Below, in pieces: positions 14,869-56,807 of a stretch of 64,000 nt of DNA (position 1 is its first letter; each line of letters starts with the position of its first letter). The stretch is from Rubripirellula sp. (GTDB lineage: Bacteria > Planctomycetota > Planctomycetia > Pirellulales > Pirellulaceae). The notes under the pieces are model-generated. The model searched no databases and was not told the origin of the DNA. It saw nothing but the letters and a program-made list of their open reading frames with translations. Location of the stretch: positions 576,001 to 640,000 of the forward strand of contig OZ244207.1 of the NCBI GenBank assembly GCA_965216875.1, written 5' to 3'. The translations under genes and the position numbers were made by a program.

Positions 14869-15000
14869 ATTTTTGTTGATAGGCGTTTGGCTCTAGGCTT
14901 TAGGCTTTAGGCTTTAGGGAGAAGTTCGCAGGGTGAAGTGTGAAAAATCAGTGCGGGCGGTTTCTTTCACACTCCAAACTTCACCCTTCACAATTCAAAG

Positions 15001-15072
15001 TAGCTCGACCAGGATTCGAACCTGGAACACCTCGTTCGAAGCGAGACATGATGTCCGTTTCACCATCGAGCC
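15001..15072 (-). tRNA. tRNA-Arg(TCG)
   Basis: Cloverleaf, GTTCGA T-loop, loop CT-TCG-AA. Confidence 0.8.
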
Positions 15073-15083
15073 GTGTTGCAGAG

Positions 15084-15170
15084 CGGAAGGCATGGGATTT
15101 GAACCCACATGACTCAGGAAGTCGCACGGTTTAGCAAACCGGCCCGGCAAGCCGTATCCGGCTACCTTCC
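15084..15170 (-). tRNA. tRNA-Ser(GCT)
   Basis: Long variable arm, loop TT-GCT-AA. Confidence 0.85.
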
Positions 15171-15180
15171 GAAACTTGAG

Positions 15181-15260
15181 TGGACCGCAAGGGAATCGAA
15201 CCCACAAACATGTAACGGAGGTTTGAGCTCCGCCGCTTTTCCGGTTTGCGTACCACGCCG
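15181..15260 (-). pseudogene. Chimeric tRNA: Leu(CAA) 5' part fused to Ala 3' end
   Basis: The two halves match two different array B genes; T and acceptor stems mismatch. Confidence 0.7.
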
Positions 15261-15262
15261 AT

Positions 15263-15325
15263 CGTTGCCTTTCGCTCCGCGAAAGTAGCATTCAGTAACG
15301 TTGCTTTCGCGGAGCGAAAGACGAC
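15263..15325. repeat. REP-like palindrome (half copy near 32628)
   Basis: ctttcgctccgcgaaag ... ctttcgcggagcgaaag. Confidence 0.6.
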
Positions 15326-15331
15326 ATTAAG

Positions 15332-15421
15332 CGTCCCCGATCGGATTTGAAGCGACAGGGACCTGCTTGGCTCTTGCGTAACAATGCCTGGCAAGCGAGC
15401 ACTCCGCTGCTCCACGAGAAC
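15332..15421 (-). pseudogene. Degenerate tRNA-like sequence
   Basis: Acceptor and D arm recognisable; anticodon and T arms scrambled. Confidence 0.5.
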
Positions 15422-15493
15422 TTTGGAAGTTTGAAGTTGGAAGGGGGAAGTGTGAAATTTCAAACTTCGAACTTCACCCTTTAAACTTCCGAG

Positions 15494-15567
15494 TAGCTCA
15501 GGTGGGACTCGAACCCACAGCATCTCTGGTTCTAAGCCAAAGTGGTCTACCAATTGCCTACCGAGCC
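15494..15567 (-). tRNA. tRNA-Leu(TAG), short variable arm
   Basis: Loop CT-TAG-AA. Confidence 0.75.
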
Positions 15568-15584
15568 ATGTTGATTGAACGGAG

Positions 15585-15655
15585 TGGAGCGCCGGGGAAT
15601 CGAACCCCGATTTTCTGCGTGCAAAACAGATGTCTTCCCGTTGGACGAGCACCCC
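15585..15655 (-). tRNA. tRNA-Ala(TGC)
   Basis: G3-U70 pair, loop TT-TGC-AC. Confidence 0.85.
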
Positions 15656-15744
15656 ATTTGAAGTTGGAAGTAAGAAGGGTGAAGTGTCAAAGAGGTTCGC
15701 GTTCCGTTTTCAACCTTTGCACTTCACCATTCAAACTTCTCAAG

Positions 15745-15835
15745 TGCCCAGGTCACGAGTCGAACCGGCAAACACTCGGACCCAGTATTCAAGGAATACT
15801 GGGCCGAGTCGCTCTGCCAGTTGGCGTAACTGGGC
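15745..15835 (-). pseudogene. tRNA-Leu(TAA) ortholog with anticodon loop replaced by a 10-bp hairpin
   Basis: CCCAGTATTC-CTT-GAATACTGGG inside the anticodon stem; compare 53865-53938. Confidence 0.65.
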
Positions 15836-15896
15836 GTCCGATGCTCACCGACCGATGCAAGTTTCTTGCACCGCCCGGCAAGCTGTTTTATAGCGA

Positions 15897-16163
15897 TCAT
15901 TTCAATCGCGGTTGGCTGTCGCCTGTTGCGTTGCGGTGATTGCGAATCGCTTTCCGATAGTCGGGAGTATCCGCGGCATCAACGACCTCATGGCCGACGC
16001 ACTCAACCACCCATCCATCAACCCAGCGATCGAGGTCGTCTTTCAGTTTCAGGACACGACCCAGCTTCGCAAACTGCTGAGGGATGTATGACGTTGTCTG
16101 CACCGAGCCACCGGCGACCGCACGTTTCATCGCACACTGCACGTATTTGACTTGTTTGGCCAT
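15897..16163 (-). CDS. Small conserved hypothetical protein inside the tRNA array
   Basis: GGAG RBS; homolog at the same position in array B (54003-54262). Confidence 0.75.
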   Translation of the reverse strand: MAKQVKYVQCAMKRAVAGGSVQTTSYIPQQFAKLGRVLKLKDDLDRWVDGWVVECVGHEVVDAADTPDYRKAIRNHRNATGDSQPRLK

Positions 16164-16211
16164 CGTCATTCTCCAAGGTTGGCATGAAGCAGCGTCACCG
16201 TGACGCGTGAG

Positions 16212-16257
16212 TAGTCCTGGATGGAATCGAACCATCGTTTCCTGTTTGTAAGACAGG
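16212..16257 (-). pseudogene. Truncated tRNA-Val(TAC), 5' half missing
   Basis: Nearly identical to the 3' half of 54315-54386; breaks at the repeat flank of a four-helix-bundle cassette. Confidence 0.8.
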
Positions 16258-16316
16258 TGAATGAAGTTTGAAGCGTGAAGTTCGAAGTTTGAAACGAAGT
16301 TCGGTAGATTGTTGGC

Positions 16317-16661
16317 ATGAAAAGTGACTTGCCTGACCGGACATTTGCGTTTTCCGAGCGAATCGTGCGACTCTGTCTGGCACTGGAGGATGAAAGCGAT
16401 GTCGCTTCAACTCTGATGAGGCAATTGCTTCGGTCGGGTACATCTATCGGCGCGAATGTGGAGGAAGCTCAGGCAAGTGAAAGCAAGCGTGACTTCGTTC
16501 ACAAGTATTCGATTGCAGCTAAAGAGGCTCGCGAAACACATTACTGGCTGCGACTGCTAGCCAAGACCGAGGTCATTCCGCCATCTCGCCTTGAACCACT
16601 CACTGCTGAAGCCAACGAACTGGTCGCAATCCTGACGACAATCTGCAAGAAGAACCGGTGA
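16317..16661 (+). CDS. Four helix bundle protein (23S rRNA IVP / bAvd-like family)
   Basis: QLLRSGTSIGANVEEAQ...F.HKYSIAAKEARETHYWL signature. Confidence 0.93.
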   Translation: MKSDLPDRTFAFSERIVRLCLALEDESDVASTLMRQLLRSGTSIGANVEEAQASESKRDFVHKYSIAAKEARETHYWLRLLAKTEVIPPSRLEPLTAEANELVAILTTICKKNR

Positions 16662-16702
16662 CAATCTTTCAAACTTCGAACTTCACCCTTCAAACATCCA
16701 AG

Positions 16703-16773
16703 CACGTCCCCAAGGATTTGAACCCTGACTTACTGGTTTGGAATCAGCAGTGCTACCGTTACACCAAGGACGC
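16703..16773 (-). tRNA. tRNA-Trp(CCA)
   Basis: Loop TT-CCA-AA. Confidence 0.8.
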
Positions 16774-16981
16774 GGGTAAAGTTTGAATTGAGAAGGGTGA
16801 AGTTAGAAGGCGAAGTATCTTCCGCTCATTTCACACTTCAAAATTCCTACGTCGAACTTCCAAGCGCCTCCCGTGTGGAAACGCTCCCAGAATAGGCTTT
16901 AGGTATTAGGTGATTAGACTCTAGGTAAAAGCTGCCTTCTTGCCTGCAGCCTAAACCGCTATGGTCTAAACACCTTCCAAG

Positions 16982-17026
16982 TGACGTGAGCGGGAATCGA
17001 ACCCGCGAACTCCTGGCTGAGAACCA
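16982..17026 (-). pseudogene. Truncated tRNA-Glu(CTC)
   Basis: 3' half of the 54707-54781 ortholog, ending at a heptamer-repeat hairpin. Confidence 0.7.
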
Positions 17027-17131
17027 TAGTGAGACTTCAGGGATCAGGATTCAGACTTCAGAAGTGACCTATTGTCCGACCTGAAGCCTGAAGCCTGAAG
17101 CCTGAAGCCTGAAACCTGCAGCCTGAATCAG

Positions 17132-17203
17132 TACCGCATGGGAGTTTCGATCTCCCTCCTGCTGTTAGAAAGACAGCCGACCTAGCCAGTAGTCGAATGC
17201 GGC
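17132..17203 (-). tRNA. tRNA-Glu(TTC), atypical T-loop
   Basis: Loop CT-TTC-TA; T-arm GGAG-ATCGAAA-CTCC. Confidence 0.65.
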
Positions 17204-17308
17204 GAAGAAAGGCTTTGGGCTCTAGACCATAGGAAAGACGATCAGGTTCGAGCTAGAGCCTAGAGCCTAGAGCCTAGAGCCTGAGGACTAAAGCCTGCGA
17301 AGCCGAAG

Positions 17309-17383
17309 CGCCGAGGACAGGAATCGAACCTGTGTTTGCCTGGTTCAGAGCCAGGTGCAACGACCAACAGTTGCCGCCTCGGT
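17309..17383 (-). tRNA. tRNA-Gln(CTG)
   Basis: Loop CT-CTG-AA. Confidence 0.8.
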
Positions 17384-17421
17384 GTACGGAAGTTTGAAGT
17401 CGGAAGTTCGAAGTTTGAAAG

Positions 17422-17493
17422 CACGGGTGGCAGGATTCGAACCTGCATACCACTGCTTCAAAGGCAGCTGGCTTACCGTTAGCCAACACCCGA
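17422..17493 (-). tRNA. tRNA-Gln(TTG)
   Basis: Loop CT-TTG-AA. Confidence 0.8.
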
Positions 17494-17548
17494 GTGTCTG
17501 CGTTGAACGTTTCAAACTTCTAGCTTCCCACTTCTAACTTCCGAAAGG

Positions 17549-17621
17549 CTCCGGCGGATGGGCTCGAACCATCAATCGTCTCCTTAACAGGGAGCCGCCC
17601 TACCGATTGGGCCACACCGGA
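17549..17621 (-). tRNA. tRNA-Asn(GTT)
   Basis: Loop CT-GTT-AA. Confidence 0.85.
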
Positions 17622-17674
17622 GTATCATCAGGCTTCAGGGATCAGGTTTCAGACTTCAGGATCTAGGGGCGAAG

Positions 17675-18034
17675 ATGAGAGACTACAGAAAACTGCGTGC
17701 GTTCGAATTGGCGGATCAGCTTGCAATCGCTGTCTACAAGTGCACGTCATCTTTCCCGAAAGAGGAAATGTTCGGACTGACATCTCAACTTCGACGCGCC
17801 GCTGTCTCCGCACCATCCAACATCGTCGAAGGAAGTGCAAAGTCATCACAAGCTGACTATGTTCGATTCCTCGAAATCTCCTACGGCTCTGTTTGCGAGG
17901 TTGAATATCAGCTGTCACTCGCACAACGCCTGTCGTATCTCGATGAACAAACAGCAACGGAGGTGATCGGCGTCGCCAATGAAGCCGGACGAGTACTCAA
18001 CGGCCTTCTTCGCTCACTGAAGTCTGACTCCTGA
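17675..18034 (+). CDS. Four helix bundle protein (23S rRNA IVP / bAvd-like family)
   Basis: FPKEEMFGLTSQLRRAAVSAPSNIVEG signature. Confidence 0.95.
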   Translation: MRDYRKLRAFELADQLAIAVYKCTSSFPKEEMFGLTSQLRRAAVSAPSNIVEGSAKSSQADYVRFLEISYGSVCEVEYQLSLAQRLSYLDEQTATEVIGVANEAGRVLNGLLRSLKSDS

Positions 18035-18051
18035 AGCCTGAAGTCTGACCA

Positions 18052-18122
18052 AGCGCCCAGCGAGAATTGAACTCGCGTCTTCTGCATGGCAAGCAGATGG
18101 GTTACCACTACACCATGGGCGC
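18052..18122 (-). tRNA. tRNA-Gly(GCC)
   Basis: Loop TT-GCC-AT. Confidence 0.85.
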
Positions 18123-18141
18123 AAAATGCATCACAACCAGA

Positions 18142-18153
18142 TTGTCAAAGATC
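18142..18153 (-). promoter_or_regulatory. boxA-like antitermination motif
   Basis: GATCTTTGACAA, identical at 55743-55754. Confidence 0.55.
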
Positions 18154-18211
18154 GGATCAGGCTTCAGGTCTCAGTCTTCAGACTTCAGTTTTCTTGCTGA
18201 AGTCTGACAAA

Positions 18212-18284
18212 GAGCACCGAGTCGGATTCGAACCGACGTCCCCTCGTTACGACGGAGGGATCTTCCCACTAGACGATCAGTGCT
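18212..18284 (-). tRNA. tRNA-Thr(CGT)
   Basis: Loop GT-CGT-AA, one anticodon-stem mismatch. Confidence 0.7.
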
Positions 18285-18427
18285 GGAGTCAGGTGTCAGG
18301 CTCCAGGCTCCAGGTTCCAGGTACTAGGCTTCAGGTTTGAGGTTTCTGTTCCTTGCTGAAGTCTGAAGTCTGAAGTCTGAAGTCTGAAGCCTGAAGCCTG
18401 AAGCCTGAAGCCTAAAGTCTGCCCAAG

Positions 18428-18500
18428 TGGGACCGGTGAGAATCGAACTCACATGAGTCGGTTTAAGAGACCGGTGCATTACCTTGTCTGCCACAATCCC
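18428..18500 (-). tRNA. tRNA-Lys(CTT)
   Basis: Loop CT-CTT-AA. Confidence 0.8.
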
Positions 18501-18531
18501 AAATTGTGTTTTTGTCGTTGATTCGTTTCAG

Positions 18532-18604
18532 TCGGCGTGGCGGGAATTGAACCCGCGACCGTCGCCTTATAAGGACGCCGCTCTCACCCCTGAGCTACAC
18601 GCCG
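18532..18604 (-). tRNA. tRNA-Ile(TAT)
   Basis: Loop CT-TAT-AA. Confidence 0.75.
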
Positions 18605-18615
18605 ATGTGTAGCAA

Positions 18616-18637
18616 GTGGGGCCGGAGAGATTCGAAC
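18616..18637 (-). other. Left att junction: displaced 3' end of tRNA-Lys(TTT)
   Basis: gtggggccggagagattcgaac is identical to the 3' end of the intact Lys gene at 56195-56216. Confidence 0.9.
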
Positions 18638-18676
18638 CTGTCTCGTTGCCAACGGAACTTCTCACTGACTCTGGAG

Positions 18677-18748
18677 TAGGATTGCAGGGACTCGAACCCC
18701 GACCCAACCGGTTAAAAGCCGGTGATGCTGCCGTAACACCTCAATCCC
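18677..18748 (-). tRNA. tRNA-Lys(TTT), element-borne replacement
   Basis: Loop CT-TTT-AA; full cloverleaf inside the left junction. Confidence 0.85.
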
Positions 18749-18752: not shown

Positions 18753-18787
18753 AAAAAACCCAGTGCCGTCGTGTGACACCGGGTTTT
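18753..18787 (-). terminator. Attenuator-type intrinsic terminator (element copy)
   Basis: AAAACCCGGUGUC/GGCACUGGGUUUUUU hairpin. Confidence 0.75.
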
Positions 18788-18814
18788 GTTGTTTCCAGCA
18801 ACAAAACGCCAACG

Positions 18815-18904
18815 TCACCGACGAAGCGGATACCAATCCAATCCATTCGCACCGCAACTGCGGGCGAGCGAATCGCTATTCAGATTCTGTTGTGTCGATT
18901 GCAT
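18815..18904 (-). CDS. Putative leader peptide, 29 aa (MQSTQQNLNSDSLARSCGANGLDWYPLRR)
   Basis: Same position as the array leaders; shares NGxDxYP with leader A; stop lies in GUGAC. Confidence 0.6.
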   Translation of the reverse strand: MQSTQQNLNSDSLARSCGANGLDWYPLRR

Positions 18905-20061: not shown

Positions 20062-20081
20062 GAACCAAATAACTCAGAGTA

Positions 20082-24144: not shown

Positions 24145-24208
24145 TGGCTAAGGCTACCTATCAGCCGGATTCCTTTTCCATGATTGGTCCTGTGTCTTGG
24201 AATGTGGA

Positions 24209-26322: not shown

Positions 26323-26362
26323 ATGGTGGTTGGCGGCCTGATGCTTGTCATACGTTCCGCGT

Positions 26363-28137: not shown

Positions 28138-28146
28138 GAGCATGGA

Positions 28147-29092: not shown

Positions 29093-30739
29093 ATGTCCAA
29101 GAAGCGCAAACGCCTTATCAAGGCTGTTGCTTACCTCCGTCGCTCTACCACAGACCAAGAGGCGAGCCTCGACGAGCAACGTGCAACCATCATCGCCTAC
29201 GCCAAAGCGAACGGATACAGAATCATCCGTTGGTACGAAGACGACGGCATAAGCGGCGATGATACGGAAAAGCGTGTCGGTTTCCTTCGCATGATCGACG
29301 ATGCCACGTCTGGCGAATTCAAATTCATTCTGTGCTGGGACCAGGATCGCTTTGGGCGGTTCGACAGTTTAGAAGCCGGTTACTACATCACACCAATCCG
29401 AAACGCCGGAGTTCAACTGGTAACGGTGAACGAAGGGCCGATTGACTGGAACAACTTTGCCGACCGTTTGACCTACAGCATCAAACAGGAAGGCAAACAC
29501 CAGTTCCTCCGCGACCTATCACGCAATGTCCTGCGAGGGCAAAGCGAGGCGGCGAAGCAAGGAAGTTGGATCGGAAGCCCGCCGTACGGTTATCTCCTAG
29601 AGGGCAACTGCAAGAACAAACGACTGGTCGTTGACGAGCCCAGAATGGCGATCGTGCGACGGTTGTTCAAAGAATACGTAGACGATGGACGTTCGCTTTC
29701 AGAGATTGCCAAACGCCTCACGGACGAAGGCGAGCCAACGCCTAAAGGTAAAAGGCAATGGCGTGGTGACACCGTGAGATTCCTTTTGGCGAATCCGGCC
29801 TACATCGGCACGTTCCGGTACAACACTGCCGGGAGCTCCAAGTACCACAGTTTCAGGCGTGGAGCAATTGCACAAGGCGGTTACCGAGGACGCAAGCCAG
29901 TAGAGGATTGGGTCGTGATTCCGAATCACCACCCAGCCGAGATCGACAAGGACGCCTTCGATCGTGCTCAAGCGATGATCGCAAAGAACCGAAACGGGCA
30001 GACCAATTATCCAGCAGGCGACAATCCGTACATCTTCAGCGGCGTGTTGCGTTGTGGTCGATGCGGTGCGTTGATGATTGGCGACGATGGGAACCGCTAT
30101 CGATGCGGCAATCGTCGAGCGAAGAAACGGTGTTTGGGAACGGTCGTGCGTGAGGACCATCTGCTGGAACATCTGACGCGTACGCTCAACAAGCATTTGA
30201 TCGACGATGATCCTGAAATGCTGGCCGCTGAATGGTCTGCCGATAGATGGGAACTGCGGCCAGAGGATGTCCCAAAGACGTTCGAGCGAATGCGTCGAAT
30301 CATGAAAGGAAACGACGGCAGGGATTTCGCGAGGGACGCGAAGCGACTGCGGGCCAAGATTGCAAAGATTGATACACAGCTCGCAAAGCTGCGTCGCAAC
30401 ATCGGGTACGTCGATGATCCGGCAACCATTACCGTCATCTCAGAGGAGATTGAGAAGCACGAAGAAGAACGCGGTACATTGCAGCGGCAGATCGAATCGC
30501 AGCCAACGGAGATCAACGTCAACTACGCGGTGCTGGACCTGATCGGGGACATGATGCACCTGCATTCCGGCAACAAGGCCGTAGTGCGTCGCGTGGTCCG
30601 AGAGGTCGATCGGATCACCGTTCACACGCATCGACGCGGAAAGGGGAATGGCACGCGACACCGCCTCAAGTCGATAGAAATCACGTGGCTAGGAGTGGGG
30701 CCGACTGCGAGTAAGTCGAACTCTCGCCGAACGGATTAA
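29093..30739 (+). CDS. Large serine recombinase (integrase)
   Basis: YLRRST, DQDRFGR, PPYGY, NPAYIG, CGRCG zinc ribbon and coiled coil; reads through the right att site. Confidence 0.95.
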   Translation: MSKKRKRLIKAVAYLRRSTTDQEASLDEQRATIIAYAKANGYRIIRWYEDDGISGDDTEKRVGFLRMIDDATSGEFKFILCWDQDRFGRFDSLEAGYYITPIRNAGVQLVTVNEGPIDWNNFADRLTYSIKQEGKHQFLRDLSRNVLRGQSEAAKQGSWIGSPPYGYLLEGNCKNKRLVVDEPRMAIVRRLFKEYVDDGRSLSEIAKRLTDEGEPTPKGKRQWRGDTVRFLLANPAYIGTFRYNTAGSSKYHSFRRGAIAQGGYRGRKPVEDWVVIPNHHPAEIDKDAFDRAQAMIAKNRNGQTNYPAGDNPYIFSGVLRCGRCGALMIGDDGNRYRCGNRRAKKRCLGTVVREDHLLEHLTRTLNKHLIDDDPEMLAAEWSADRWELRPEDVPKTFERMRRIMKGNDGRDFARDAKRLRAKIAKIDTQLAKLRRNIGYVDDPATITVISEEIEKHEEERGTLQRQIESQPTEINVNYAVLDLIGDMMHLHSGNKAVVRRVVREVDRITVHTHRRGKGNGTRHRLKSIEITWLGVGPTASKSNSRRTD

Positions 30740-30773
30740 AAGTCCGTCATGCTGCCAGTTACACCACAACCCC
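30695..30773 (-). pseudogene. Disrupted tRNA-Lys(TTT), right att junction
   Basis: 5' part matches 56196-56268; the element-supplied 3' part breaks the T-stem. Confidence 0.85.
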
Positions 30774-30881
30774 AAAGTAGGCTTTAGGTATGAGGCGTTT
30801 AGAATTTAGGCATGACAGCTGGACGCTTCGCATCGTTTCTCTCCTTTCAAACTTCACTCTTCCAGCTTCAAACTTCCGCAG

Positions 30882-30953
30882 TGGTAGCCCTGGGAATTGA
30901 ACTCAGCGCGACTCGGTTATCAGCCGAGTTTGGGCAACCAGCCCTCGACTACC
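30882..30953 (-). tRNA. tRNA-Ile(GAT)
   Basis: Loop CT-GAT-AA. Confidence 0.75.
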
Positions 30954-31064
30954 GTTTGTCAGGCGTCAGGAATCAGGCCTCCGACTTCAGGAGAACTTCC
31001 TGAATCCTGAATCCTGAATCCTGAATCCTGACGCCTGACGCCTGAAGTCTGACTCCTGCATTAG

Positions 31065-31137
31065 TCGGGTGTGTCGGAATCGAACCGCTCTCCATCGTCC
31101 CAAACGAAGTGTGCACAACCATTACACTTCACGCCCG
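31065..31137 (-). tRNA. tRNA-Pro(TGG)
   Basis: C1-G72/A73, loop TT-TGG-GA, some stem mismatches. Confidence 0.65.
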
Positions 31138-31186
31138 ATCGTCGACTTCTGACGCCTGATACCTGAAGCCTGAAGTCTGTATAAAT

Positions 31187-31825
31187 GAGTCGGCTTTAGC
31201 GCAAGCTCTATTCCGACTCGGTGATGGCCCTCGAATCAACGCCATTGGCTCCTCGAGGTCTGCACACGCGCGTGTTAAACGCTTCATCACCTTCACCCCT
31301 GTCGTTGATGTCTCCATCGCCCAACAGCAGGCAGTAGTGCAACGAGTCTTCTGGGTTAGGTCCCGAGCCTCCCGTCGGAGACTCGCACCTCGCTCGATCA
31401 GCTTTCTACGTCGGGACGTAGTCCACTGATCCCCTTTCGGGCAGCTCGACCACCTTTCGGCGACCGATGTAGGCACTTCGACTCTGTTACACGTATGACT
31501 TGCTGCCACCTCCCGAAGGAGTCGGCAACTTCCCGAACACTTTATGTGTCATTCAACCCTGACAAGGTTGCGACTGGAACGTTCCACGATAGCCATACAA
31601 ATCCGTGGTCTTTCAGGCAGCACTCCGCTGGTGGGCCAGCGACTCACGCCCTCAGTTACTTGACAGCTTCCAGTACCCACGCGGTTACCTACCGGCTTCA
31701 TCGCCAAGGCTACGACGGATGAACGCCGCTCCTAGGTCAGCCTTTCGTTTATCTCTCTTGCGAGAGCCGGCCACCCGTTCCAGGGCAAACCGGTTTTACG
31801 TCCGAACGACATCACGGACCTATGA
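31187..31825 (-). ncRNA. Candidate large structured ncRNA (about 640 nt)
   Basis: Dense hairpins with minus-strand GAAA, GCAA and UUCG tetraloops; no convincing ORF; lies between two tRNAs. Confidence 0.65.
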
Positions 31826-31940
31826 TTTTAGAAGTGGGAAGCTAGAGGTATGAAAACCTCGCTCGCCCAACTTCAATTGTTCTGTCAATGCATTTTCCTG
31901 CTTTCAAACTTCACCCTTCACTCTTCGAACTTCCGAAAGG

Positions 31941-32013
31941 TGGGCCAGGAGGAACTCGAATCCCCGTCTGCGGTGCTTCAAACCGCCGCTAAACCATCTC
32001 AGCTACCGACCCG
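31941..32013 (-). tRNA. tRNA-Phe(GAA), first gene of array A
   Basis: Loop TT-GAA-GC. Confidence 0.8.
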
Positions 32014-32111: not shown

Positions 32112-32146
32112 AAAAAGGCTCGATGTCTGAGTGACACCGAGCCTTC
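32112..32146 (-). terminator. Attenuator-type intrinsic terminator (array A)
   Basis: AAGGCUCGGUGUC/GACAUCGAGCCUUUUU. Confidence 0.75.
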
Positions 32147-32176
32147 ATGTAGAAAGCAATTCGCTTAAAGCGAGTG

Positions 32177-32335
32177 TCACGTCAGCAATCGAAAACCAAA
32201 CGGATACAGGTCCGCGCCATTGCCTGGCTGGAACGTATTGGCGCTGCGTTCGCTTTCGCTGCGCCAATCGCTACCGCCGAAGGGATTCCCTTCGTGTATC
32301 CGTTGGAGTTGACTTGTGGGTTGCTTGGTAAACAT
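32177..32335 (-). CDS. Putative leader peptide, 52 aa (array A)
   Basis: MFTKQPTSQLQRIHEGNPFGGSDWRSESERSANTFQPGNGADLYPFGFRLLT; same length and frame as 56808-56966 with synonymous changes. Confidence 0.75.
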   Translation of the reverse strand: MFTKQPTSQLQRIHEGNPFGGSDWRSESERSANTFQPGNGADLYPFGFRLLT

Positions 32336-32404
32336 CTGACTGAAGAACGGTTGTTCGTTTCTCTTTGCGTGATTTGCGCCAGCATCCGCTGGTTCTGGAT
32401 TAAA

Positions 32405-32483
32405 TAGACGCTTCCGATACAGAAGGGTTCGCGAAAAACCTCGTCGTCAAAACCTAGATGCGCGACGCGTCGAGATTATTTCA
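32405..32483 (-). promoter_or_regulatory. Tandem ECF-like promoters (array A)
   Basis: TGAAAT-N16-GCATCT and GCGAACC-N16-GTCTA. Confidence 0.65.
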
Positions 32484-32702
32484 TTGCCCAAAAGAAACTC
32501 TGCCACATTTTGCTCAATAGTCAAACAAGAAAACCATCATGACCAACGTAGAGTCGCCGGGATTCTTTGGAGTCGAGGCTCGATCGAGTCGCTTGATTGC
32601 TTCGAAAAAGCTGTGTTGTCGACGCTGCTTTCGCGGAGCGAAAGGCGACGATCAACAGCGTCTCAGCCCAAGAGGAGAGTTCTCCAGCAGGATCTCGAGG
32701 GC

Positions 32703-50928: not shown

Positions 50929-51074
50929 CGCGATCGACGAAGGTATGACCAGAGACTTTACGGTGCTCTGCCACTGAGCTACGGCCCGGCTATGGAAAGC
51001 AGTTGGGCCGGTGGGACTCGAACCCACGACACCCGGCTCCTGAAGCATGTACTCCGAATCGGCAGTCGATCGTG
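50929..51074 (-). ncRNA. yrlA: YrlA-like Y RNA (permuted tRNA mimic)
   Basis: Terminal stem CGAUCGAC/GUCGAUCG; T-arm (GGUUCGAGUCCC) precedes a loop-closed acceptor stem and D-arm (UAGCUCAGUGGCAGAGC); no anticodon. Confidence 0.8.
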
Positions 51075-52014: not shown

Positions 52015-52016
52015 AG

Positions 52017-52087
52017 AAACGCTGGTGGGAGTCGAACCCACTTAGACCGGGTTGCAGCCGGTTGCCTGGCCATCTGGCTCCAGCGTG
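52017..52087 (-). tRNA. tRNA-Cys(GCA)
   Basis: Loop CT-GCA-AC. Confidence 0.8.
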
Positions 52088-52095
52088 TTCTCAAG

Positions 52096-52167
52096 CGTCC
52101 TCGCCAGGAATCGAACCTGGTCTTCGACCTTCGCAGAGTCGCGTGCTGTCCGGCACACTCCGAGAAC
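52096..52167 (-). tRNA. tRNA-Arg(GCG)
   Basis: Loop CT-GCG-AA. Confidence 0.75.
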
Positions 52168-52192
52168 ATGGATGGCTAATCAAAGAGCCGAG

Positions 52193-52264
52193 TAACCCGC
52201 CCAGGAATCGAACCTGGTCCGACAGTTTCGAAGACTGTCATGCTATCCAGCACACCCGCGAGTC
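52193..52264 (-). tRNA. tRNA-Arg(TCG)
   Basis: Loop CT-TCG-AA. Confidence 0.8.
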
Positions 52265-52289
52265 ATGTTGATTGTTAGTTAGTCACAAG

Positions 52290-52363
52290 AGCCGACGACT
52301 GGGTTTGCACCAGCATGAGCCGCTTTACAAAAGCGGTGCCTTTCTGCATCGAGCCACGTCGGC
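52290..52363 (-). tRNA. tRNA-Thr(TGT)
   Basis: Loop TT-TGT-AA. Confidence 0.75.
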
Positions 52364-52380
52364 ATGGGTTGCTGCATCAG

Positions 52381-52452
52381 TAGCCCGACCAGGAATCGAA
52401 TCCGGAACTTCTGGTTAGAAGCCAGAGATGATGTCCGTTTCACCATCGAGCC
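52381..52452 (-). tRNA. tRNA-Arg(TCT)
   Basis: Loop CT-TCT-AA. Confidence 0.75.
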
Positions 52453-52465
52453 GTTTGCAAGCAAG

Positions 52466-52551
52466 CGGAAGGCGAGGGAGTCGAACCCTCATCACCCGAA
52501 GGTGGCACGCGTTAGCAGTGCGGCCCGGCAAACCGTATCCGGCTGCCTTCC
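52466..52551 (-). tRNA. tRNA-Ser(GCT)
   Basis: Loop CT-GCT-AA, long variable arm. Confidence 0.85.
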
Positions 52552-52563
52552 GAAATCGTTGAG

Positions 52564-52636
52564 TGGACCGGAAGGGAATCGAACCCTTCTCACCGATCTT
52601 GCAAGGATCAGTCGCCCCCTTGGAACATGCCAGCCC
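52564..52636 (-). tRNA. tRNA-Ala(TGC)
   Basis: G3-U70, loop CT-TGC-AA. Confidence 0.8.
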
Positions 52637-52647
52637 ATTTCACTCAG

Positions 52648-52718
52648 AGGTCCGTCCGGGAATTGAACCCGGTCTTCGTCCATACCACAGACGCGTGCTG
52701 CCGCAACACTTACAGACC
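52648..52718 (-). tRNA. tRNA-Thr(GGT)
   Basis: Loop GT-GGT-AT. Confidence 0.75.
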
Positions 52719-52729
52719 ATTCGTTTCAG

Positions 52730-52802
52730 TGATCGCGGATGGAATCGAACCATCGATCTCCTGCATGTCACGCAGGCGTCTTCGCCGCTGGACCACGCGA
52801 CC
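52730..52802 (-). tRNA. tRNA-Val(GAC)
   Basis: Loop GT-GAC-AT. Confidence 0.8.
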
Positions 52803-52816
52803 GTAGTCTTGATGAG

Positions 52817-52892
52817 TAGTCGAGATAGGAGTCGAACCTACAAAATCACAAGCCTCTCGTGCTTGCCGCTATGCCTGTTTGCGTACTCGACC
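52817..52892 (-). tRNA. tRNA-Leu(GAG), short variable arm
   Basis: Loop AC-GAG-AG (atypical positions 32/33). Confidence 0.6.
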
Positions 52893-52899
52893 GAGAAAG

Positions 52900-52968
52900 T
52901 AGCGGATCCGGGGGTCGCACCCGACGGTCCTGGCTTATGAGGCATGGCTGAGCACTGGCCCATCCGCG
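52900..52968 (-). tRNA. tRNA-Met(CAT), atypical, initiator-like acceptor
   Basis: Loop CT-CAT-AA; 5' CGCGG. Confidence 0.55.
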
Positions 52969-53033
52969 TTGTGTTAGCTTGTTAGCAATTAGCCTGTTAG
53001 CGACTAGCTTTCTATTTCTATTGGGGCACACTC

Positions 53034-53384
53034 ATGCGAGATCACAAAAATCTTCGAGCGTTCGAACTGGCCGACGAAGTTGCTTTGCTCACTTACAAGT
53101 TCACGCGGAGTTTTCCGCGTGAAGAACAATTCGGGTTGACATCCCAAATGCGTCGAGCTGCCGTATCAGTTCCATCGAATATCGTCGAAGGCTGTGGTCG
53201 TCACACGGAAGCGGAGTTCCTCCGATTTCTCGACGTTGCATACGGTTCACTCAGGGAACTTGAGTACCAAACCTCGCTTGCAGTTCGCTTGGAATTCGTC
53301 TCGAACCACGGGGATTTCACTGCCAAGCTAACTGAAGCCTCCAAAGTCCTAGGCTCACTGATCCGCTCCATCCGAAAAAGCTAA
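53034..53384 (+). CDS. Four helix bundle protein (23S rRNA IVP / bAvd-like family)
   Basis: FPREEQFGLTSQMRRAAVSVPSNIVEG. Confidence 0.95.
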   Translation: MRDHKNLRAFELADEVALLTYKFTRSFPREEQFGLTSQMRRAAVSVPSNIVEGCGRHTEAEFLRFLDVAYGSLRELEYQTSLAVRLEFVSNHGDFTAKLTEASKVLGSLIRSIRKS

Positions 53385-53419
53385 TTGCTAACTCGCTAGC
53401 TGCTAATCGGCTAGCTCAG

Positions 53420-53488
53420 TTGCAGGTCTCGGTATCGAGCCGAGCACACCGACCTCATGAAAGTCAGTTGGACACCTGTCGCACCTGC
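53420..53488 (-). tRNA. tRNA-Met(CAT), atypical
   Basis: Loop TT-CAT-GA. Confidence 0.55.
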
Positions 53489-53498
53489 AATGTTGAAG

Positions 53499-53582
53499 TA
53501 GCCAAGGCGAGGGTTGAACTCGCACGCCACGATGGGCACGACATTCTGAGTGTCGCGTGTCTACCGGTTCCACCACTTGGCT
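53499..53582 (-). tRNA. tRNA-Leu(CAG)
   Basis: Loop CT-CAG-AA, long variable arm. Confidence 0.85.
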
Positions 53583-53597
53583 GTGTTTGAATCGAAG

Positions 53598-53671
53598 TAC
53601 TGCGGGAGGGAGTCGAACCCTCAAACACGATCGTTTGAAATTCGCCGCTTTGCCGGTTTGCGTACCACAGC
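53598..53671 (-). tRNA. tRNA-Leu(CAA), short variable arm
   Basis: Loop TT-CAA-AC, weak anticodon stem. Confidence 0.6.
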
Positions 53672-53683
53672 ATGTTGATTGAG

Positions 53684-53755
53684 TACTGAGGGCGGGAGTC
53701 GAACCCGCAAGCACTTGTTCCTAAGACAAGCGGCTCGCCGTTGGCCTACCTCAGC
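53684..53755 (-). tRNA. tRNA-Leu(TAG), short variable arm
   Basis: Loop CT-TAG-GA. Confidence 0.7.
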
Positions 53756-53767
53756 GTTTGCGAAAAG

Positions 53768-53838
53768 TGGAGCACCGGGGAATCGAACCCCGATTTTCTA
53801 CGTGCAAAACAGACGTCTTCCCGTTGGACGAGCGCCCC
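53768..53838 (-). tRNA. tRNA-Ala(TGC)
   Basis: G3-U70, loop TT-TGC-AC. Confidence 0.8.
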
Positions 53839-53863
53839 ATATCGTTTCGTTAACGTTGCAAAA

Positions 53864-53938
53864 GTGCCCAGAGCAGGAATCGAACCTGCAAACATCCGGG
53901 TTTAAGCCGGACCGCTCTGCCGATTGGCGTATCTAGGC
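53864..53938 (-). tRNA. tRNA-Leu(TAA), short variable arm
   Basis: Loop CT-TAA-AC. Confidence 0.75.
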
Positions 53939-54002
53939 GTCGTGTGTTGGCCGCCGTGGGAAGAACGCGATTGCTCACGCCCTTCCTTTGGCTGCCAACG
54001 TG

Positions 54003-54262
54003 TTATGCTCGGAGTCGCGGCGTGCTGTCGCCCGTTGACTTGCGGTGGTTTCGGATTGCCTTGCGGTAGTTCGGAACACTGTCGCCTTCGACGATCACGT
54101 CGCCGACCGTTTCGACAACCCAGCCATCGACCCAGCGGTCGTCGCTATCTTTCAGCTTCAGTATTTCGCGAATTGCGTCGGGATATACGAAGTTGTGACG
54201 ACGCTAGCACCAGCGACGATGCGTCTCATCGCACATTGCGCGTACTTCACGTTTCTGGTCAT
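54003..54262 (-). pseudogene. Frameshifted homolog of the 15897-16163 protein
   Basis: MTRNVKYAQCAMRR...TSYIPTQFAK, then a 10-nt deletion relative to copy A; resumes LKLKDSDDRWVDGWVVE. Confidence 0.75.
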
Positions 54263-54314
54263 CGTCGTCTCCTTGTCAGTTGGTAAGAATAATCATTGTT
54301 TGCGAAGGTCGAAG

Positions 54315-54386
54315 TAGTCCAGGATGGAATCGAACCATCTTTTCCTGTTTGTAAGACAGGCGTCGTAGCCGTTGGACCACAGGACT
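54315..54386 (-). tRNA. tRNA-Val(TAC)
   Basis: Loop CT-TAC-AA. Confidence 0.85.
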
Positions 54387-54409
54387 TTTTCAAAATGTCG
54401 ATCCGGAGA

Positions 54410-54481
54410 GCACGTCCCCAAGGATTTGAAACCTGACTAACTGGTTTGGAATCAGCAGTGCTACCGTTACACCAGAGACGT
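54410..54481 (-). tRNA. tRNA-Trp(CCA)
   Basis: Loop TT-CCA-AA. Confidence 0.75.
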
Positions 54482-54498
54482 GGATGTGTTTTCAAAAG

Positions 54499-54583
54499 TG
54501 GGAACGCAAGGAATCGCACCTCTCGCCGGCTACCACACAATTAGAGGCAGAAGGGTTACAACCTCCCGTGTGGAAACGCTCCC
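54499..54583 (-). tRNA. tRNA-Tyr(GTA), atypical
   Basis: Loop TT-GTA-AC, long variable region, reduced D-arm. Confidence 0.55.
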
Positions 54584-54601
54584 ATGTATCAATCGAACAA
54601 G

Positions 54602-54686
54602 CGGAAGCCGTGGGACTCGAACCCACAACGGTGATTAGCCGCAGCTGTTTTCAAGACAGTGTCCTCATCCGGCCGGGTGACTTCCG
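54602..54686 (-). tRNA. tRNA-Ser(TGA)
   Basis: Loop CT-TGA-AA, long variable arm. Confidence 0.85.
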
Positions 54687-54706
54687 TAGTGCGTCATCAA
54701 ACGCAG

Positions 54707-54781
54707 TGACGTGAGCGGGAAACGAACCCGCGGACTCCTGGATGAAAACCAGGCAATTCTGCCATCAGAATCTACCACGCC
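54707..54781 (-). tRNA. tRNA-Glu(TTC)
   Basis: Loop TT-TTC-AT. Confidence 0.75.
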
Positions 54782-54806
54782 GTTTGGTTGCTTCGATCGA
54801 AGCGAG

Positions 54807-54878
54807 TACCGCATAGGAGTTTCGATCTCCTTCCTGCTGCCTGAGAAGCAGCCGACCTAGCCAGTAGTCGAATGCGGC
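54807..54878 (-). tRNA. tRNA-Glu(CTC), atypical T-loop
   Basis: Loop TT-CTC-AG. Confidence 0.65.
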
Positions 54879-54892
54879 TTGTTTGCAAAAAG

Positions 54893-54965
54893 CGATGGCA
54901 ACGGGAGTCGAACCCGCAGCGACTTGATAGACAATCAAGCTTCCTTCCGAGAGGAACTTGCCACC
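54893..54965 (-). tRNA. tRNA-Asp(GTC)
   Basis: Loop TT-GTC-TA. Confidence 0.75.
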
Positions 54966-54980
54966 GAAAATGTTCGCGAG

Positions 54981-55058
54981 GGTGACTAACCGGAATTGAA
55001 CCGGCGACAAACTCATTCACAGTGAGTCTCTGGAAACCAACACCAGATCTAGCCACAG
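54981..55058 (-). tRNA. tRNA-His(GTG)
   Basis: Loop CT-GTG-AA. Confidence 0.75.
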
Positions 55059-55129
55059 TCGGGTATCAGTGAGTCGCACACTGTCCATGCGTGGTCCCAA
55101 ACCACACCGCTTACTCCAAGCTATACCCG
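55059..55129 (-). tRNA. tRNA-Pro(TGG), atypical T-loop
   Basis: Loop TT-TGG-GA. Confidence 0.65.
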
Positions 55130-55141
55130 AAACAAAAATAG

Positions 55142-55216
55142 CACCGGAGACTGGAATCGAACCAATGGACTCCTCGTTCAGAGCGAGGTGCAGCGACCAG
55201 CAACTGCTACTCCGGC
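55142..55216 (-). tRNA. tRNA-Gln(CTG)
   Basis: Loop CT-CTG-AA. Confidence 0.8.
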
Positions 55217-55238
55217 GTTTTAATCAAATCGTCAATAG

Positions 55239-55306
55239 CACTCCGTCCGGGAATTGAACCCGATCTGCGGGCTTCAAAGGCCCACGTCGCGACTACGCGC
55301 CGGAGA
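55239..55306 (-). tRNA. tRNA-Gln(TTG), short D-arm
   Basis: Loop CT-TTG-AA. Confidence 0.65.
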
Positions 55307-55324
55307 GAGTTTTCCCGATGAAAG

Positions 55325-55396
55325 AGTGTCCTGCGGGAGTCGAACCCGCCTATCTGAGTTGGAAGCCCAGCACCTTTGCCGCTCGGCCAAGGACAC
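55325..55396 (-). tRNA. tRNA-Gly(TCC)
   Basis: Loop CT-TCC-AA. Confidence 0.8.
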
Positions 55397-55481
55397 GATG
55401 GATGCGGAAGTTTGAAGGGCGAGGTGTGAAACGAAGCGAGCTATTCCACACTTCTGGCTTCACCCTTCAAACTTCGCGAAG

Positions 55482-55553
55482 CTCCGGCGGAAGGACTCGA
55501 ACCTTCACTCGTCTCCTTAACAGGGAGCCGCCTTACCATTGGGCCACACCGGA
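55482..55553 (-). tRNA. tRNA-Asn(GTT)
   Basis: Loop CT-GTT-AA. Confidence 0.85.
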
Positions 55554-55569
55554 TTGTTAACTCATCAAG

Positions 55570-55643
55570 TCAGGATGGCTGGATTTGAACCAGCGATCTC
55601 GTGTTTCCGGAACACGCGGAGTGCCAGACTTTCCCACATCCTG
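55570..55643 (-). tRNA. tRNA-Pro(CGG)
   Basis: Loop TC-CGG-AA; C1-G72/A73. Confidence 0.7.
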
Positions 55644-55651
55644 ATTTGCAA

Positions 55652-55722
55652 AGCGCCCAGTGGGAGTCGAACCCACACTTCCGCCATGGCAAGGCAGTAG
55701 GCTGCCACTACATCATGGGCGC
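55652..55722 (-). tRNA. tRNA-Gly(GCC)
   Basis: Loop TT-GCC-AT. Confidence 0.8.
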
Positions 55723-55742
55723 AGATTTGCATCACAACCAAA

Positions 55743-55754
55743 TTGTCAAAGATC
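55743..55754 (-). promoter_or_regulatory. boxA-like antitermination motif
   Basis: GATCTTTGACAA, identical to 18142-18153. Confidence 0.55.
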
Positions 55755-55834
55755 GGATCAGGCTTCAGGTGCCAGGCTTTAGACGTCAGGTTGTATTCCT
55801 GAAGTCTGACTCCTGATTGCTGAAGTCTGCTTTA

Positions 55835-55907
55835 GAGCACCGAGCCGGAATTGAACCCGCATCACCTCGTTACGACGGAGGTATCTTGCCGTTAGAAGAT
55901 CAGTGCT
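55835..55907 (-). tRNA. tRNA-Thr(CGT)
   Basis: Loop GT-CGT-AA. Confidence 0.7.
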
Positions 55908-56002
55908 GGAGTAGCGGATTAGCCTTTAGCTGTTTAGCTGATTAGGTTTCTTCTTTGTCTTTCCTAATCAGCTAACTCGCTAACAGCTAACCTGCTCTTT
56001 AG

Positions 56003-56075
56003 TGGGACCGGTGAGAATCGAACTCACATCGTTCGGTTTAAGAGACCGATGCATTACCTTGTCTGCCACAATCCC
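56003..56075 (-). tRNA. tRNA-Lys(CTT)
   Basis: Loop CT-CTT-AA. Confidence 0.8.
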
Positions 56076-56095
56076 ATGTGTTTTGTCTTGTCCGG

Positions 56096-56168
56096 TCGGC
56101 GCGGAAGGAATCGAACCTTCAACCCTCGTCTTATGAGGACGCCGCCCTTACCACTGAGCTGCACGCCG
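56096..56168 (-). tRNA. tRNA(CAT), Ile2 or Met
   Basis: Loop CT-CAT-AA; ortholog of Ile(TAT) at 18532. Confidence 0.75.
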
Positions 56169-56195
56169 GAGGCGCCAATGGCGCGGCGCCGTAAG

Positions 56196-56268
56196 TGGGG
56201 CCGGAGAGATTCGAACTCTCGCCGAACGGCTTAAAAGACCGTCATGCTGCCTGTTACACCACAACCCC
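56196..56268 (-). tRNA. tRNA-Lys(TTT), intact (empty attB)
   Basis: Loop CT-TTT-AA. Confidence 0.85.
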
Positions 56269-56332
56269 ATGATTGGTCGGGCGTAGGCGTTTCAATCGCA
56301 ATGCAAGAAGCATGTCGGTTTCTCTTTCGTGT

Positions 56333-56391
56333 TATCGAACTCAGCGCGACCCGCGTATCAGGCGGATTTGGGCGACCAGCCCTCGACTACC
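56333..56391 (-). pseudogene. tRNA-Ile(GAT) lacking its 3' acceptor strand
   Basis: Matches 30882-30953 only up to the T-loop. Confidence 0.7.
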
Positions 56392-56408
56392 GTGTTGTTG
56401 TAAAAAAG

Positions 56409-56509
56409 TCGGACACCTCGGAGTCGAACCGCCCGTCGCGGAGCGACCCACAAATGAACGCAGTCTCCTGCTCCCAAAGCAGGCGTGCTTCCATCTGCAC
56501 CTGTATCCG
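56409..56509 (-). tRNA. tRNA-Pro(TGG) with an insertion of about 30 nt before the T-loop
   Basis: Loop TT-TGG-GA; extra segment with a GGGUCGC/GCGAC hairpin. Confidence 0.5.
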
Positions 56510-56566
56510 ATGTTGTTTGTGGTGTTCGCTGCAGCCGATTCCGTCGGCGCATATCTTCTTTGTCAG

Positions 56567-56638
56567 TGGGCCGGGAGGCGCTCGAATCCTCGTCTGCGGT
56601 GCTTCAAACCGCCGCTAGACCGTCTCAGCTACCAGCCC
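56567..56638 (-). tRNA. tRNA-Phe(GAA), first gene of array B
   Basis: Loop TT-GAA-GC. Confidence 0.75.
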
Positions 56639-56743
56639 GCGTTAGCTTGTTAGCAGTTAGCTTGTTAGCGGTTAGCTTGTTAGCGGTTAGCCAGAAAGTG
56701 CTTTCCTAACTCGTTAATCGGCTAATGGCTAATCAGCTAAAAC

Positions 56744-56777
56744 AAAAGGCTCGATGCCTGCGTGACACCGAGCCTTC
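56744..56777 (-). terminator. Attenuator-type intrinsic terminator (array B)
   Basis: AAGGCUCGGUGUC/GGCAUCGAGCCUUUU then GUUUU. Confidence 0.75.
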
Positions 56778-56807
56778 ATGTAGAAAGCAGTTCGCTTGAT
56801 GCGAGTG

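Follow-up and report, generated by a model that had tools for sequence, protein, structure and literature searches.

How a bacterium silences a large, acquired set of spare transfer RNA (tRNA) genes, and when it uses them, is largely an open question, and tRNA genes are usually viewed as promoter-controlled, through growth rate and the stringent response. The question is raised by a 64,000-nucleotide (nt) stretch of the genome of Rubripirellula sp. (Planctomycetota; GenBank assembly GCA_965216875.1, contig OZ244207.1, positions 576,001 to 640,000), hereafter the window, in which three tRNA gene arrays are each preceded by a short open reading frame (ORF) and an intrinsic terminator. We consider it likely that this element is a ribosome-dependent leader-peptide transcription attenuator gating horizontally acquired supernumerary tRNA arrays. 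All 48 tRNA genes of the window and the attenuator elements lie on the minus strand, and the arrays are the following:

30699..32012, minus strand: array A, truncated, with tRNA-Phe(GAA), Ile(GAU) and Lys(UUU); the Lys 3' end is aberrant and adjoins a recombinase gene
52016..56638, minus strand: array B, 31 tRNA genes led by tRNA-Phe(GAA) (ARAGORN)
15000..18748, minus strand: array C, 14 tRNA genes led by tRNA-Lys(UUU), Ile(UAU) and Lys(CUU) (tRNA gene calls)

The genome has 99 tRNA genes, of which 48 are in the window arrays and 51 are scattered, the latter forming a full set that covers the code. The array tRNAs have a mean identity of 63% with the housekeeping isoacceptors, and Ile(UAU), Arg(GCG) and Glu(CUC) are found within the genome in the arrays only. 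An earlier note on this DNA, made from the letters alone, had spoken of a spare tRNA set, and this description is borne out, with nearly half of the genome's tRNA genes forming a set divergent from the complete housekeeping one. The arrays are dense (31 genes in 4.6 kb for array B) and resemble the long, supernumerary and horizontally spread L-type tRNA gene arrays of the literature; a survey of tRNA arrays is available (PMC4758250).

Arrays A and B are headed by two copies of one element, copies A and B, which are 75% identical across ~414 nt and have no further close copies in the 8.26 Mb, single-contig genome. Their parts are located as follows:

32336..32526, minus strand: conserved 5' leader and promoter-proximal region of copy A, where the similarity between copies A and B starts
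32177..32335, minus strand: leader ORF A, 52 codons plus stop, peptide MFTKQPTSQLQRIHEGNPFGGSDWRSESERSANTFQPGNGADLYPFGFRLLT, heading array A
32297..32299, minus strand: AUA (Ile) codon 13 of leader A, with the equivalent AUA of leader B at 56928..56930
32174..32180, minus strand: stop motif GUGACAC of copy A, with UGA at 32179..32177; it pairs with 32137..32131 as the putative 5' strand of the antiterminator
32161..32173, minus strand: small hairpin H1 (UCGCUUUAAGCGA) in the interval between stop and terminator, with another loop and stem in loci L014 and L073
32112..32146, minus strand: intrinsic terminator A, with 5' arm 32146..32133, loop 32132..32128, 3' arm 32127..32114 and a U-tract to 32112
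56808..56966, minus strand: leader ORF B, 52 codons plus stop, with stop motif GUGACAC at 56811..56805
56737..56777, minus strand: intrinsic terminator B, with GUGUCAC at 56768..56762 and a U-tract after the stem

In both copies the stop codon of the 52-codon ORF that heads the array (32335..32177 and 56966..56808) lies within GUGACAC, and a hairpin with a U-tract follows about 30 nt later, ahead of the first tRNA gene; the 5' arm and loop of this terminator contain GGUGUCAC, the complement of the stop motif. These features had all been described in the earlier note, as had a series of synonymous differences (AAG/AAA, CAA/CAG, GAA/GAG, CCA/CCT, CGA/AGA and CTG/CTC), every one of which is present between A and B. 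The copy A hairpin (32146..32114) is G+C-rich, has 13–14 bp, starts 30 nt past the stop and is followed by the U-tract, and GUGUCAC in its 5' arm and loop (32137..32131) is the predicted 3' strand of the antiterminator; the stem of terminator B (56777..56745) has 14 pairs, seven of which are G-C. A small hairpin separates the stop from the terminator in both copies. Both copies fold far better than shuffled sequences, with z-scores of -5.2 for copy A and -4.25 for copy B. The 5' region of copy A contains three blocks (TTTTNGCGAACC, GCGTCTAT and AAGTCACA) that are conserved in 18 loci.

A BLAST search with copy A located the element in 17 of 200 other sampled genomes of the same family. The stretch from the stop codon to the U-tract is the best conserved part of the matches (79–87% identity), and tRNA genes adjoin the element in 20 of the 21 loci examined outside this genome. 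An exact pattern consisting of stop motif, gap, terminator arm, gap and GAGCC was scanned against one genome per species (185,579 species) and found 47 loci, 46 of them in Planctomycetota, from 36 assemblies as counted by accession prefix; these represent the genera Rhodopirellula, Stieleria, Novipirellula, Neorhodopirellula, Aporhodopirellula, Roseimaritima, Rubripirellula, Roseiconus, Laterigemmans and Aureliella, together with metagenome-assembled genomes. The remaining locus, in a Nocardioidaceae genome, is a chance match without U-tract, ORF or tRNA. The ORF, stop motif and terminator occur together before tRNA arrays at 45 of the 46 Planctomycetota loci, and a same-strand tRNA gene lies downstream at all 45 that could be assessed (Phe(GAA) at 44 and Lys(UUU) at one; L061, with only 104 nt of downstream DNA, was left out of this count). 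The arrangement of ORF, stop motif and terminator exceeds chance. A strict version of the main pattern matched in one of 344 genomes of the order outside the family, and a strict pattern for a second subfamily (subfamily 2) in none of 401 genomes sampled from the phylum (2 of this family), both patterns being too strict to show absence. All of these counts are drawn from sampled genomes and strict patterns, and related leaders are non-independent samples.

Structures were compared in 66 unique leaders from the family genomes and the 36 Planctomycetota assemblies. The terminator is a G+C-rich stem of 12–14 bp with a U-tract, situated 22–100 nt ahead of the first tRNA gene, and at least 62 of the 66 leaders keep the pair at each of 12 stem positions, with compensatory changes at three of these positions (G-C 54, A-U 11 and C-G 1 at two positions; U-A 52, C-G 12 and U-G 2 at the third). 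The antiterminator consists of eight contiguous pairs (positions 0–7) between the stop motif and the terminator 5' arm and loop, each present in 64–66 of the 66 leaders, with six non-pairs among 528 cells. Its changes are one-sided and preserve pairing (G-C to G-U, A-U to G-U and C-G to U-G), and a further position, i=9, is paired in all 66 leaders (G-U 52, G-C 12, A-U 2) and is possibly compensatory. The minimum-energy fold of the nascent RNA, taken from 13 nt before the stop through the terminator loop, contains the helix between stop motif and terminator arm in 65 of 66 leaders. This antiterminator state has a median energy of -23.0 kcal/mol, as against -28.1 kcal/mol when the stop motif is masked and the terminator forms. 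In these folding models the design is bistable, with the antiterminator forming first. When the ~250 windows of each leader are ranked by complementarity to the terminator arm, the 12-nt window at the stop comes first in 49 of 63 leaders. The switch region from stop to U-tract is far more conserved than the synonymous sites of the ORF.

We also note that the group-2 leaders L010, L012, L039 and L079 have a second GUGAC stretch (CGUGACGCGAGC) in the 5' leader, ~180–190 nt upstream of the stop, whose complementarity to the terminator arm exceeds that of the stop motif.

The ORF, the terminator, their mutually exclusive pairing, its conservation and the link to tRNA arrays are thus established, and they can be read together as follows. 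Transcription would begin upstream of the short ORF. The end of the ORF, GUGAC(AC) with its UGA, would pair with GGUGUCAC in the upper terminator 5' arm and loop, giving the antiterminator as the default nascent fold. A closely following ribosome on or near the UGA would cover the stop motif, so that the terminator forms and transcription stops 22–100 nt before the first tRNA gene; with a late, stalled or absent ribosome the antiterminator would persist and the polymerase would enter the array. With the antiterminator as the default, RNA that is not translated at all should leave the array ON. We infer that the ORF is translated, and predict both the regulated termination and the polarity of the switch from folding energies and geometry.

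The reading frame bears on whether a ribosome is involved at all. Sixty-five elements were pooled into 54 unique main-family sequences of ORF plus switch; the stop is fixed by the search pattern and a canonical start was required, the tested part being the open frame between them. In all 54, no stop interrupts the frame between a conserved AUG and the UGA in GUGACAC, through 14 length classes of 30–52 codons (the 29-codon leader C lies outside the main family), and leaders always differ in length by whole codons. The two alternative frames contain stops in 48 and 52 of the 54 leaders.

The leader might instead be a structured RNA element acting in cis, for example a riboswitch or a leader bound by a protein or a tRNA, in which a ligand sets the choice between terminator and antiterminator and the ORF is secondary. 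The folding of copies A and B relative to shuffles is consistent with this, as are a variable-length central hairpin that recurs among leaders and a 30-nt block that is conserved at all codon positions. The block, codons 9–18 (CAA UCC AGU CGA CUC GAA CRG AUA CAC GAA; 32271..32300 on the minus strand in leader A), is the best-conserved stretch of the leader, and its third positions are conserved at at least 0.94 in most codons among 52 leaders, which argues for constraint at the nucleotide level rather than at the peptide level. However, the frame is kept through all 14 length classes, and the stop codon always lies in the switch strand, where a ligand switch would not need it. Structure within the ORF was rejected as a general feature, 22 representatives having a median z-score of -1.5 and values of -2 to -4.4 being confined to the long leaders. 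Rfam searches assigned the element to no family, either at the gathering threshold or with E relaxed to 10; the T-box leader model likewise has no match at E up to 10 in copy A or B, and the only hit, to STnc390, was dismissed as a terminator-like chance match. The RNAalifold output contains a helix sequestering the start codon and a P1 pairing (GAUAC:GUAUC), which are near-invariant and hence little informative. On balance we regard a ligand-operated leader as unlikely.

The strictly kept frame, and a main-family peptide motif recognisable across genera (..RLE[RQ]IHEG..FGG.. with a C-terminal Y-P-x-R-L), would also be expected of a free-standing, separately terminated gene for a functional small protein, with transcription of the array resulting from incidental read-through or from another promoter. 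Several features make this improbable. The leader peptides match no family in Pfam and NCBIfam searches, pairwise ratios of nonsynonymous to synonymous substitution rates (dN/dS) range from 0.36 to 0.95 except in a single pair (1.42), the three codon positions have changed about equally often (56/53/62), and codons 9–18 are conserved at third positions too. Peptides that cannot be aligned with one another, described below, share the layout in which the stop lies in the antiterminator. The spacers between U-tract and first tRNA gene (22–100 nt, median 43, among 43 unique spacers) leave neither room nor motif for a separate promoter, as a loose TTGnnn-N16-18-TAnnnT pattern searched from inside the terminator onward occurs in none of the 43. 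What is conserved is translation and its end point, rather than a protein. Since the spacers are short and lack this motif, array transcription most likely depends on read-through of the terminator.

The spacers have features of their own. In most relatives (the spacers of L039 to L085, e.g. L048) the interval from the terminator to tRNA-Phe contains a small conserved hairpin (CGUGUCCG...CGGGC) with AACCCCAACAACGAACCCA after it, and this hairpin may serve as a signal for processing. The spacer that separates terminator B from tRNA-Phe (56640–56735, minus strand) is packed with short repeats of the GCTAAC/AAGCTAAC type, and TAGC/GCTAA-rich spacers resembling it are present in L040, L053, L055, L069 and L072.

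The element before array C provides a further comparison, and has these components:

18815..18904, minus strand: leader ORF C, 29 codons plus stop, peptide MQSTQQNLNSDSLARSCGANGLDWYPLRR, with stop motif GGUGACGUUGG at 18819..18809
18753..18783, minus strand: intrinsic terminator C (CCCGGUG...CACUGGG plus U6), whose 5' arm CCGGUGUCAC pairs with the leader C stop motif

The earlier note had considered this a third, divergent copy of the same leader. The element is real, and pairing that tolerates G-U is kept, with GGUGACGUUGG, which holds the leader C UGA, pairing with CCGGUGUCAC through pairs that include three G-U wobbles; but it belongs to a separate subfamily that heads tRNA-Lys-led arrays and is not a diverged version of leaders A and B. 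The minimum-energy fold of full-length copy C is the antiterminator (-33.7 kcal/mol), and terminator C ends 5 nt ahead of tRNA-Lys (18748). Queried with this copy, other genomes matched in the terminator alone, and the 11 matches of this kind (L087 to L093, L095 to L097 and L102) are a fair test of the arrangement because they were selected without the stop motif. Ten precede tRNA arrays, and all ten of these have a short ORF with its UGA in GUGAC, 38–41 nt ahead of the terminator arm; the eleventh, L097, lies behind a protein gene and lacks both such an ORF and a tRNA gene. Two additional peptide types are represented among the ten, MM.L.SSFI.ER...RL* and ...YPLRL*, the latter ending being shared by the leader C relatives L088, L091 and L092. 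L019/L068 and L027 encode yet other peptides in an identical layout, and the layout is also kept in L036, from a neighbouring family. None of the peptides of these subfamilies (L019/L068, L027, ...YPLRL* and MM.L.SSFI.ER...RL*) can be aligned with those of the main family, and the layout is retained in all.

A C-terminal Tyr-Pro-x-Arg-Leu pattern, with variants YPRLM, YRLLT, YPLRL, YPPRL and YSLRL, precedes the invariant UGA-C in all subfamilies. It could slow termination, with constraint on nucleotides and on peptide being inseparable here. Together with the conserved N-terminal motif, it is what might be expected if the nascent peptide stalled the ribosome on a specific small molecule or antibiotic rather than in response to general translation speed, in the manner of TnaC, ErmCL or the vmlR leader. 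TnaC arrests at a UGA stop. Arrest at UGA stops is reported among known cases (PMC11890864). Nonetheless, the peptides differ widely between subfamilies that share the RNA layout, the N-terminal block is conserved at the nucleotide level, and arrest at the stop would leave a ribosome covering the antiterminator strand and switch the array OFF, which is a poor fit for a stress response; we therefore hold sensing by nascent-peptide arrest to be quite unlikely.

Finally, an unregulated terminator insulating the array from upstream genes, with a fortuitous small ORF and complementarity, is highly improbable, since although terminators of the same type end ordinary protein genes without leader or tRNA (L025 and L097), the ORF, stop motif and terminator co-occur at 45 of 46 loci and at all ten array-preceding terminator-only matches, the antiterminator is in the nascent fold of 65 of 66 leaders, and the stop-to-U-tract region is far more conserved than the ORF synonymous sites.

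The attenuator reading, in turn, has to be weighed against a number of observations that count against it. L009 and L081 have kept the switch and lost the 5' part of the ORF, and the dN/dS values given above indicate weak constraint on the peptide. A simple sigma-70 consensus scan upstream of copies A and B found no promoter, and candidates picked by eye were unconvincing and were discarded. Both antiterminator strands are near-invariant, and they offer conserved pairing potential and not clear covariation; covariation, which the earlier note had put forward as a check, is seen in the compensatory changes of the terminator stem and not clearly in the antiterminator. L087 is without the antiterminator in its nascent fold, and in 14 of 63 leaders a better complement of the terminator arm lies elsewhere, the stop window ranking 2nd to 19th. 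In most leaders, shuffled sequences pair as well upstream of the core helix as the real ones do (fractions 0.008–0.5), and for this reason the core helix alone is claimed; an extended antiterminator, in which the 12 nt upstream of GUGACAC pair with the 3' half of the terminator, was dropped on the same ground. As to codon content, there are no runs of one codon in the leaders, as the earlier note had remarked of single amino acids; leader B shows no excess of codons that the array B tRNAs can read (75% versus 79% in gene windows); and the amino-acid diversity of the leaders is ordinary compared with gene windows of equal length (median percentile 0.28). Overall, the attenuator anatomy proposed in the earlier note holds in all comparative and folding tests run, and the parts that fell are the third copy as the same leader and a proposed link to Ro60, discussed below.

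What the ribosome would sense may lie in the codons. Leader A is 69% readable by arrays A and C versus 50%, which is marginal (~1 in 100 windows), and its matching to all arrays is not significant. A codon-matched leader is accordingly unsupported for leader B and marginal for leader A, and a leader sampling all amino acids is likewise unsupported, its diversity standing at the median percentile just given.

AUA and UUA are the two rarest codons of the genome; AUA, its rarest Ile codon, makes up 1.6% of Ile codons in long ORFs, and the figure for UUA is 2%. AUA is kept at codon 9–15 in 52 of the 54 unique main-family leaders. The 54 leaders together contain 50 UUA codons. Of all leader codons 5.6% are rare, which by an informal estimate is several times the average for the genome. 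AUA is present in most subfamily-2 leaders despite differing neighbour bases and is absent from the ...YPLRL* group. This retention of rare codons is suggestive of a slow-decoding sensor; in the main family the AUA could alternatively be kept for the RNA pairing GAUAC:GUAUC.

Both large arrays have a candidate AUA reader at the same position, Ile(UAU) in array C and a CAU tRNA in array B (56094–56168, minus strand; Met according to ARAGORN). The latter is ~85% identical to the array C Ile(UAU), as estimated from the alignment, and shares its acceptor stem; this tRNA is probably of the Ile2 type, in which modification to lysidine allows AUA to be read. The leader stop is always UGA-C, which is a weak termination context in E. 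coli. These features permit the tentative proposal, possible but rather less likely than not to be right, that the leader is a decoding-speed meter, in which the ribosome must clear AUA and UUA codons and a slow UGA-C stop in step with the RNA polymerase for the array to be OFF, and loss of decoding turns the spare set ON. The loop would close on itself because the arrays carry the AUA reader, as Ile(UAU) or the Ile-like CAU tRNA. If true, such a meter would answer tRNA cleavage by toxins or phage-defence nucleases, loss of lysidine, and ribosome-targeting antibiotics. That the conserved AUA and UUA codons make the leader extra sensitive to slow decoding is suggested more weakly than the attenuator itself.

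Arrays A and C are separated by an island (18900–30740 of the window), which also encodes DUF5343 and DUF3606 proteins in addition to the following:

25672–26322 and 29042–30739: serine recombinases
20082–20672: HEPN_Swt1 protein
24209–25297: RelA_SpoT-domain protein

The tRNA-Lys gene beside the recombinase (30699–30772) has a 3' end that is not complementary to its 5' end, as if cut by integration. A simple duplication of tRNA-Lys upon integration of the island (19–30.7 kb) was considered and rejected, as the three Lys(UUU) genes are 74–84% alike. Next to array B is an McrBC-like pair (MrcB_N plus AAA_5, then DUF2357 plus PD-(D/E)XK; 44740–50309, plus strand).

The earlier note had further proposed that Y RNA and Ro60 genes are switched on with the arrays. 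This part is not supported for Ro60: the TROVE family (PF05731, Ro60) has no match in the whole genome, with control genomes positive, and for the Y RNA there is only a YrlA-like Rfam match below the cut-off (50931..51057, minus strand, downstream of array B; 43.5 bits against a cut-off of 69, E 2.5e-7). A YrlB match at 51942–52014 (minus strand) is likewise sub-threshold, at 30.5 bits.

If the attenuator reading is correct, the translation apparatus would report its own failure and call in replacement tRNAs without a protein regulator. The element is compact, conserved and present in cultivable strains of Rhodopirellula, Stieleria, Novipirellula and Rubripirellula, and is thus directly testable, and it would be a natural part for translation-stress sensors. 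The suggestion in the earlier note that attenuation of tRNA arrays is undescribed agrees with full-text literature searches, mostly of journals without subscription, in which no paper describing such control was found.

Among known systems, the element is closest in its logic to the attenuators of amino-acid operons (trpL, hisL, leuL, pheL, thrL and ilvL), with which it shares a short leader ORF, a terminator and a competing antiterminator, and in which a ribosome at the ORF end likewise leads to termination and a lagging ribosome to read-through. Those attenuators regulate biosynthetic enzymes, whereas the planctomycete element precedes tRNAs and has no runs of control codons, and it differs further in having its stop codon within the strand that forms the antiterminator. 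The default state also differs: untranslated trp-type leaders form the 1:2 hairpin and the terminator (super-attenuation), whereas the predicted default here is the antiterminator, with ON expected. Classical ribosome-mediated attenuation with an unusual geometry, given by the stop codon in the antiterminator strand, is the best-supported model.

The expected signal is also reminiscent of the class of antibiotic-responsive ribo-regulators revealed by Term-seq, in which terminators are read through upon ribosome stalling in an upstream ORF. In the leader attenuators of resistance genes that sense translation inhibitors, such as that of vmlR (PMC9226507), ribosomes stalled in a short upstream ORF lead to terminator read-through, an impaired-translation signal like the one proposed here. 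The target of resistance-gene attenuators is a resistance protein, whereas that of the planctomycete element is a spare tRNA set.

In its expected output, the element recalls the L-array (trn operon) of Anabaena PCC 7120, the one case that has been studied, which is silent and induced by translational stress (PMC8421152). Like the planctomycete arrays, it is a long, supernumerary and divergent array beside a full housekeeping set, and its stress induction is the output expected of the planctomycete arrays. The means of control appear to be different. The main text of PMC8421152 places control of the L-array in direct repeats at the promoter and does not use the terms leader peptide, attenuat-, terminator or uORF, and its repressor is named as TrcR (PMC10272220). 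On these accounts, Anabaena controls its spare tRNAs through promoter repeats and a repressor, whereas the planctomycete arrays have a leader ORF with a terminator/antiterminator switch.

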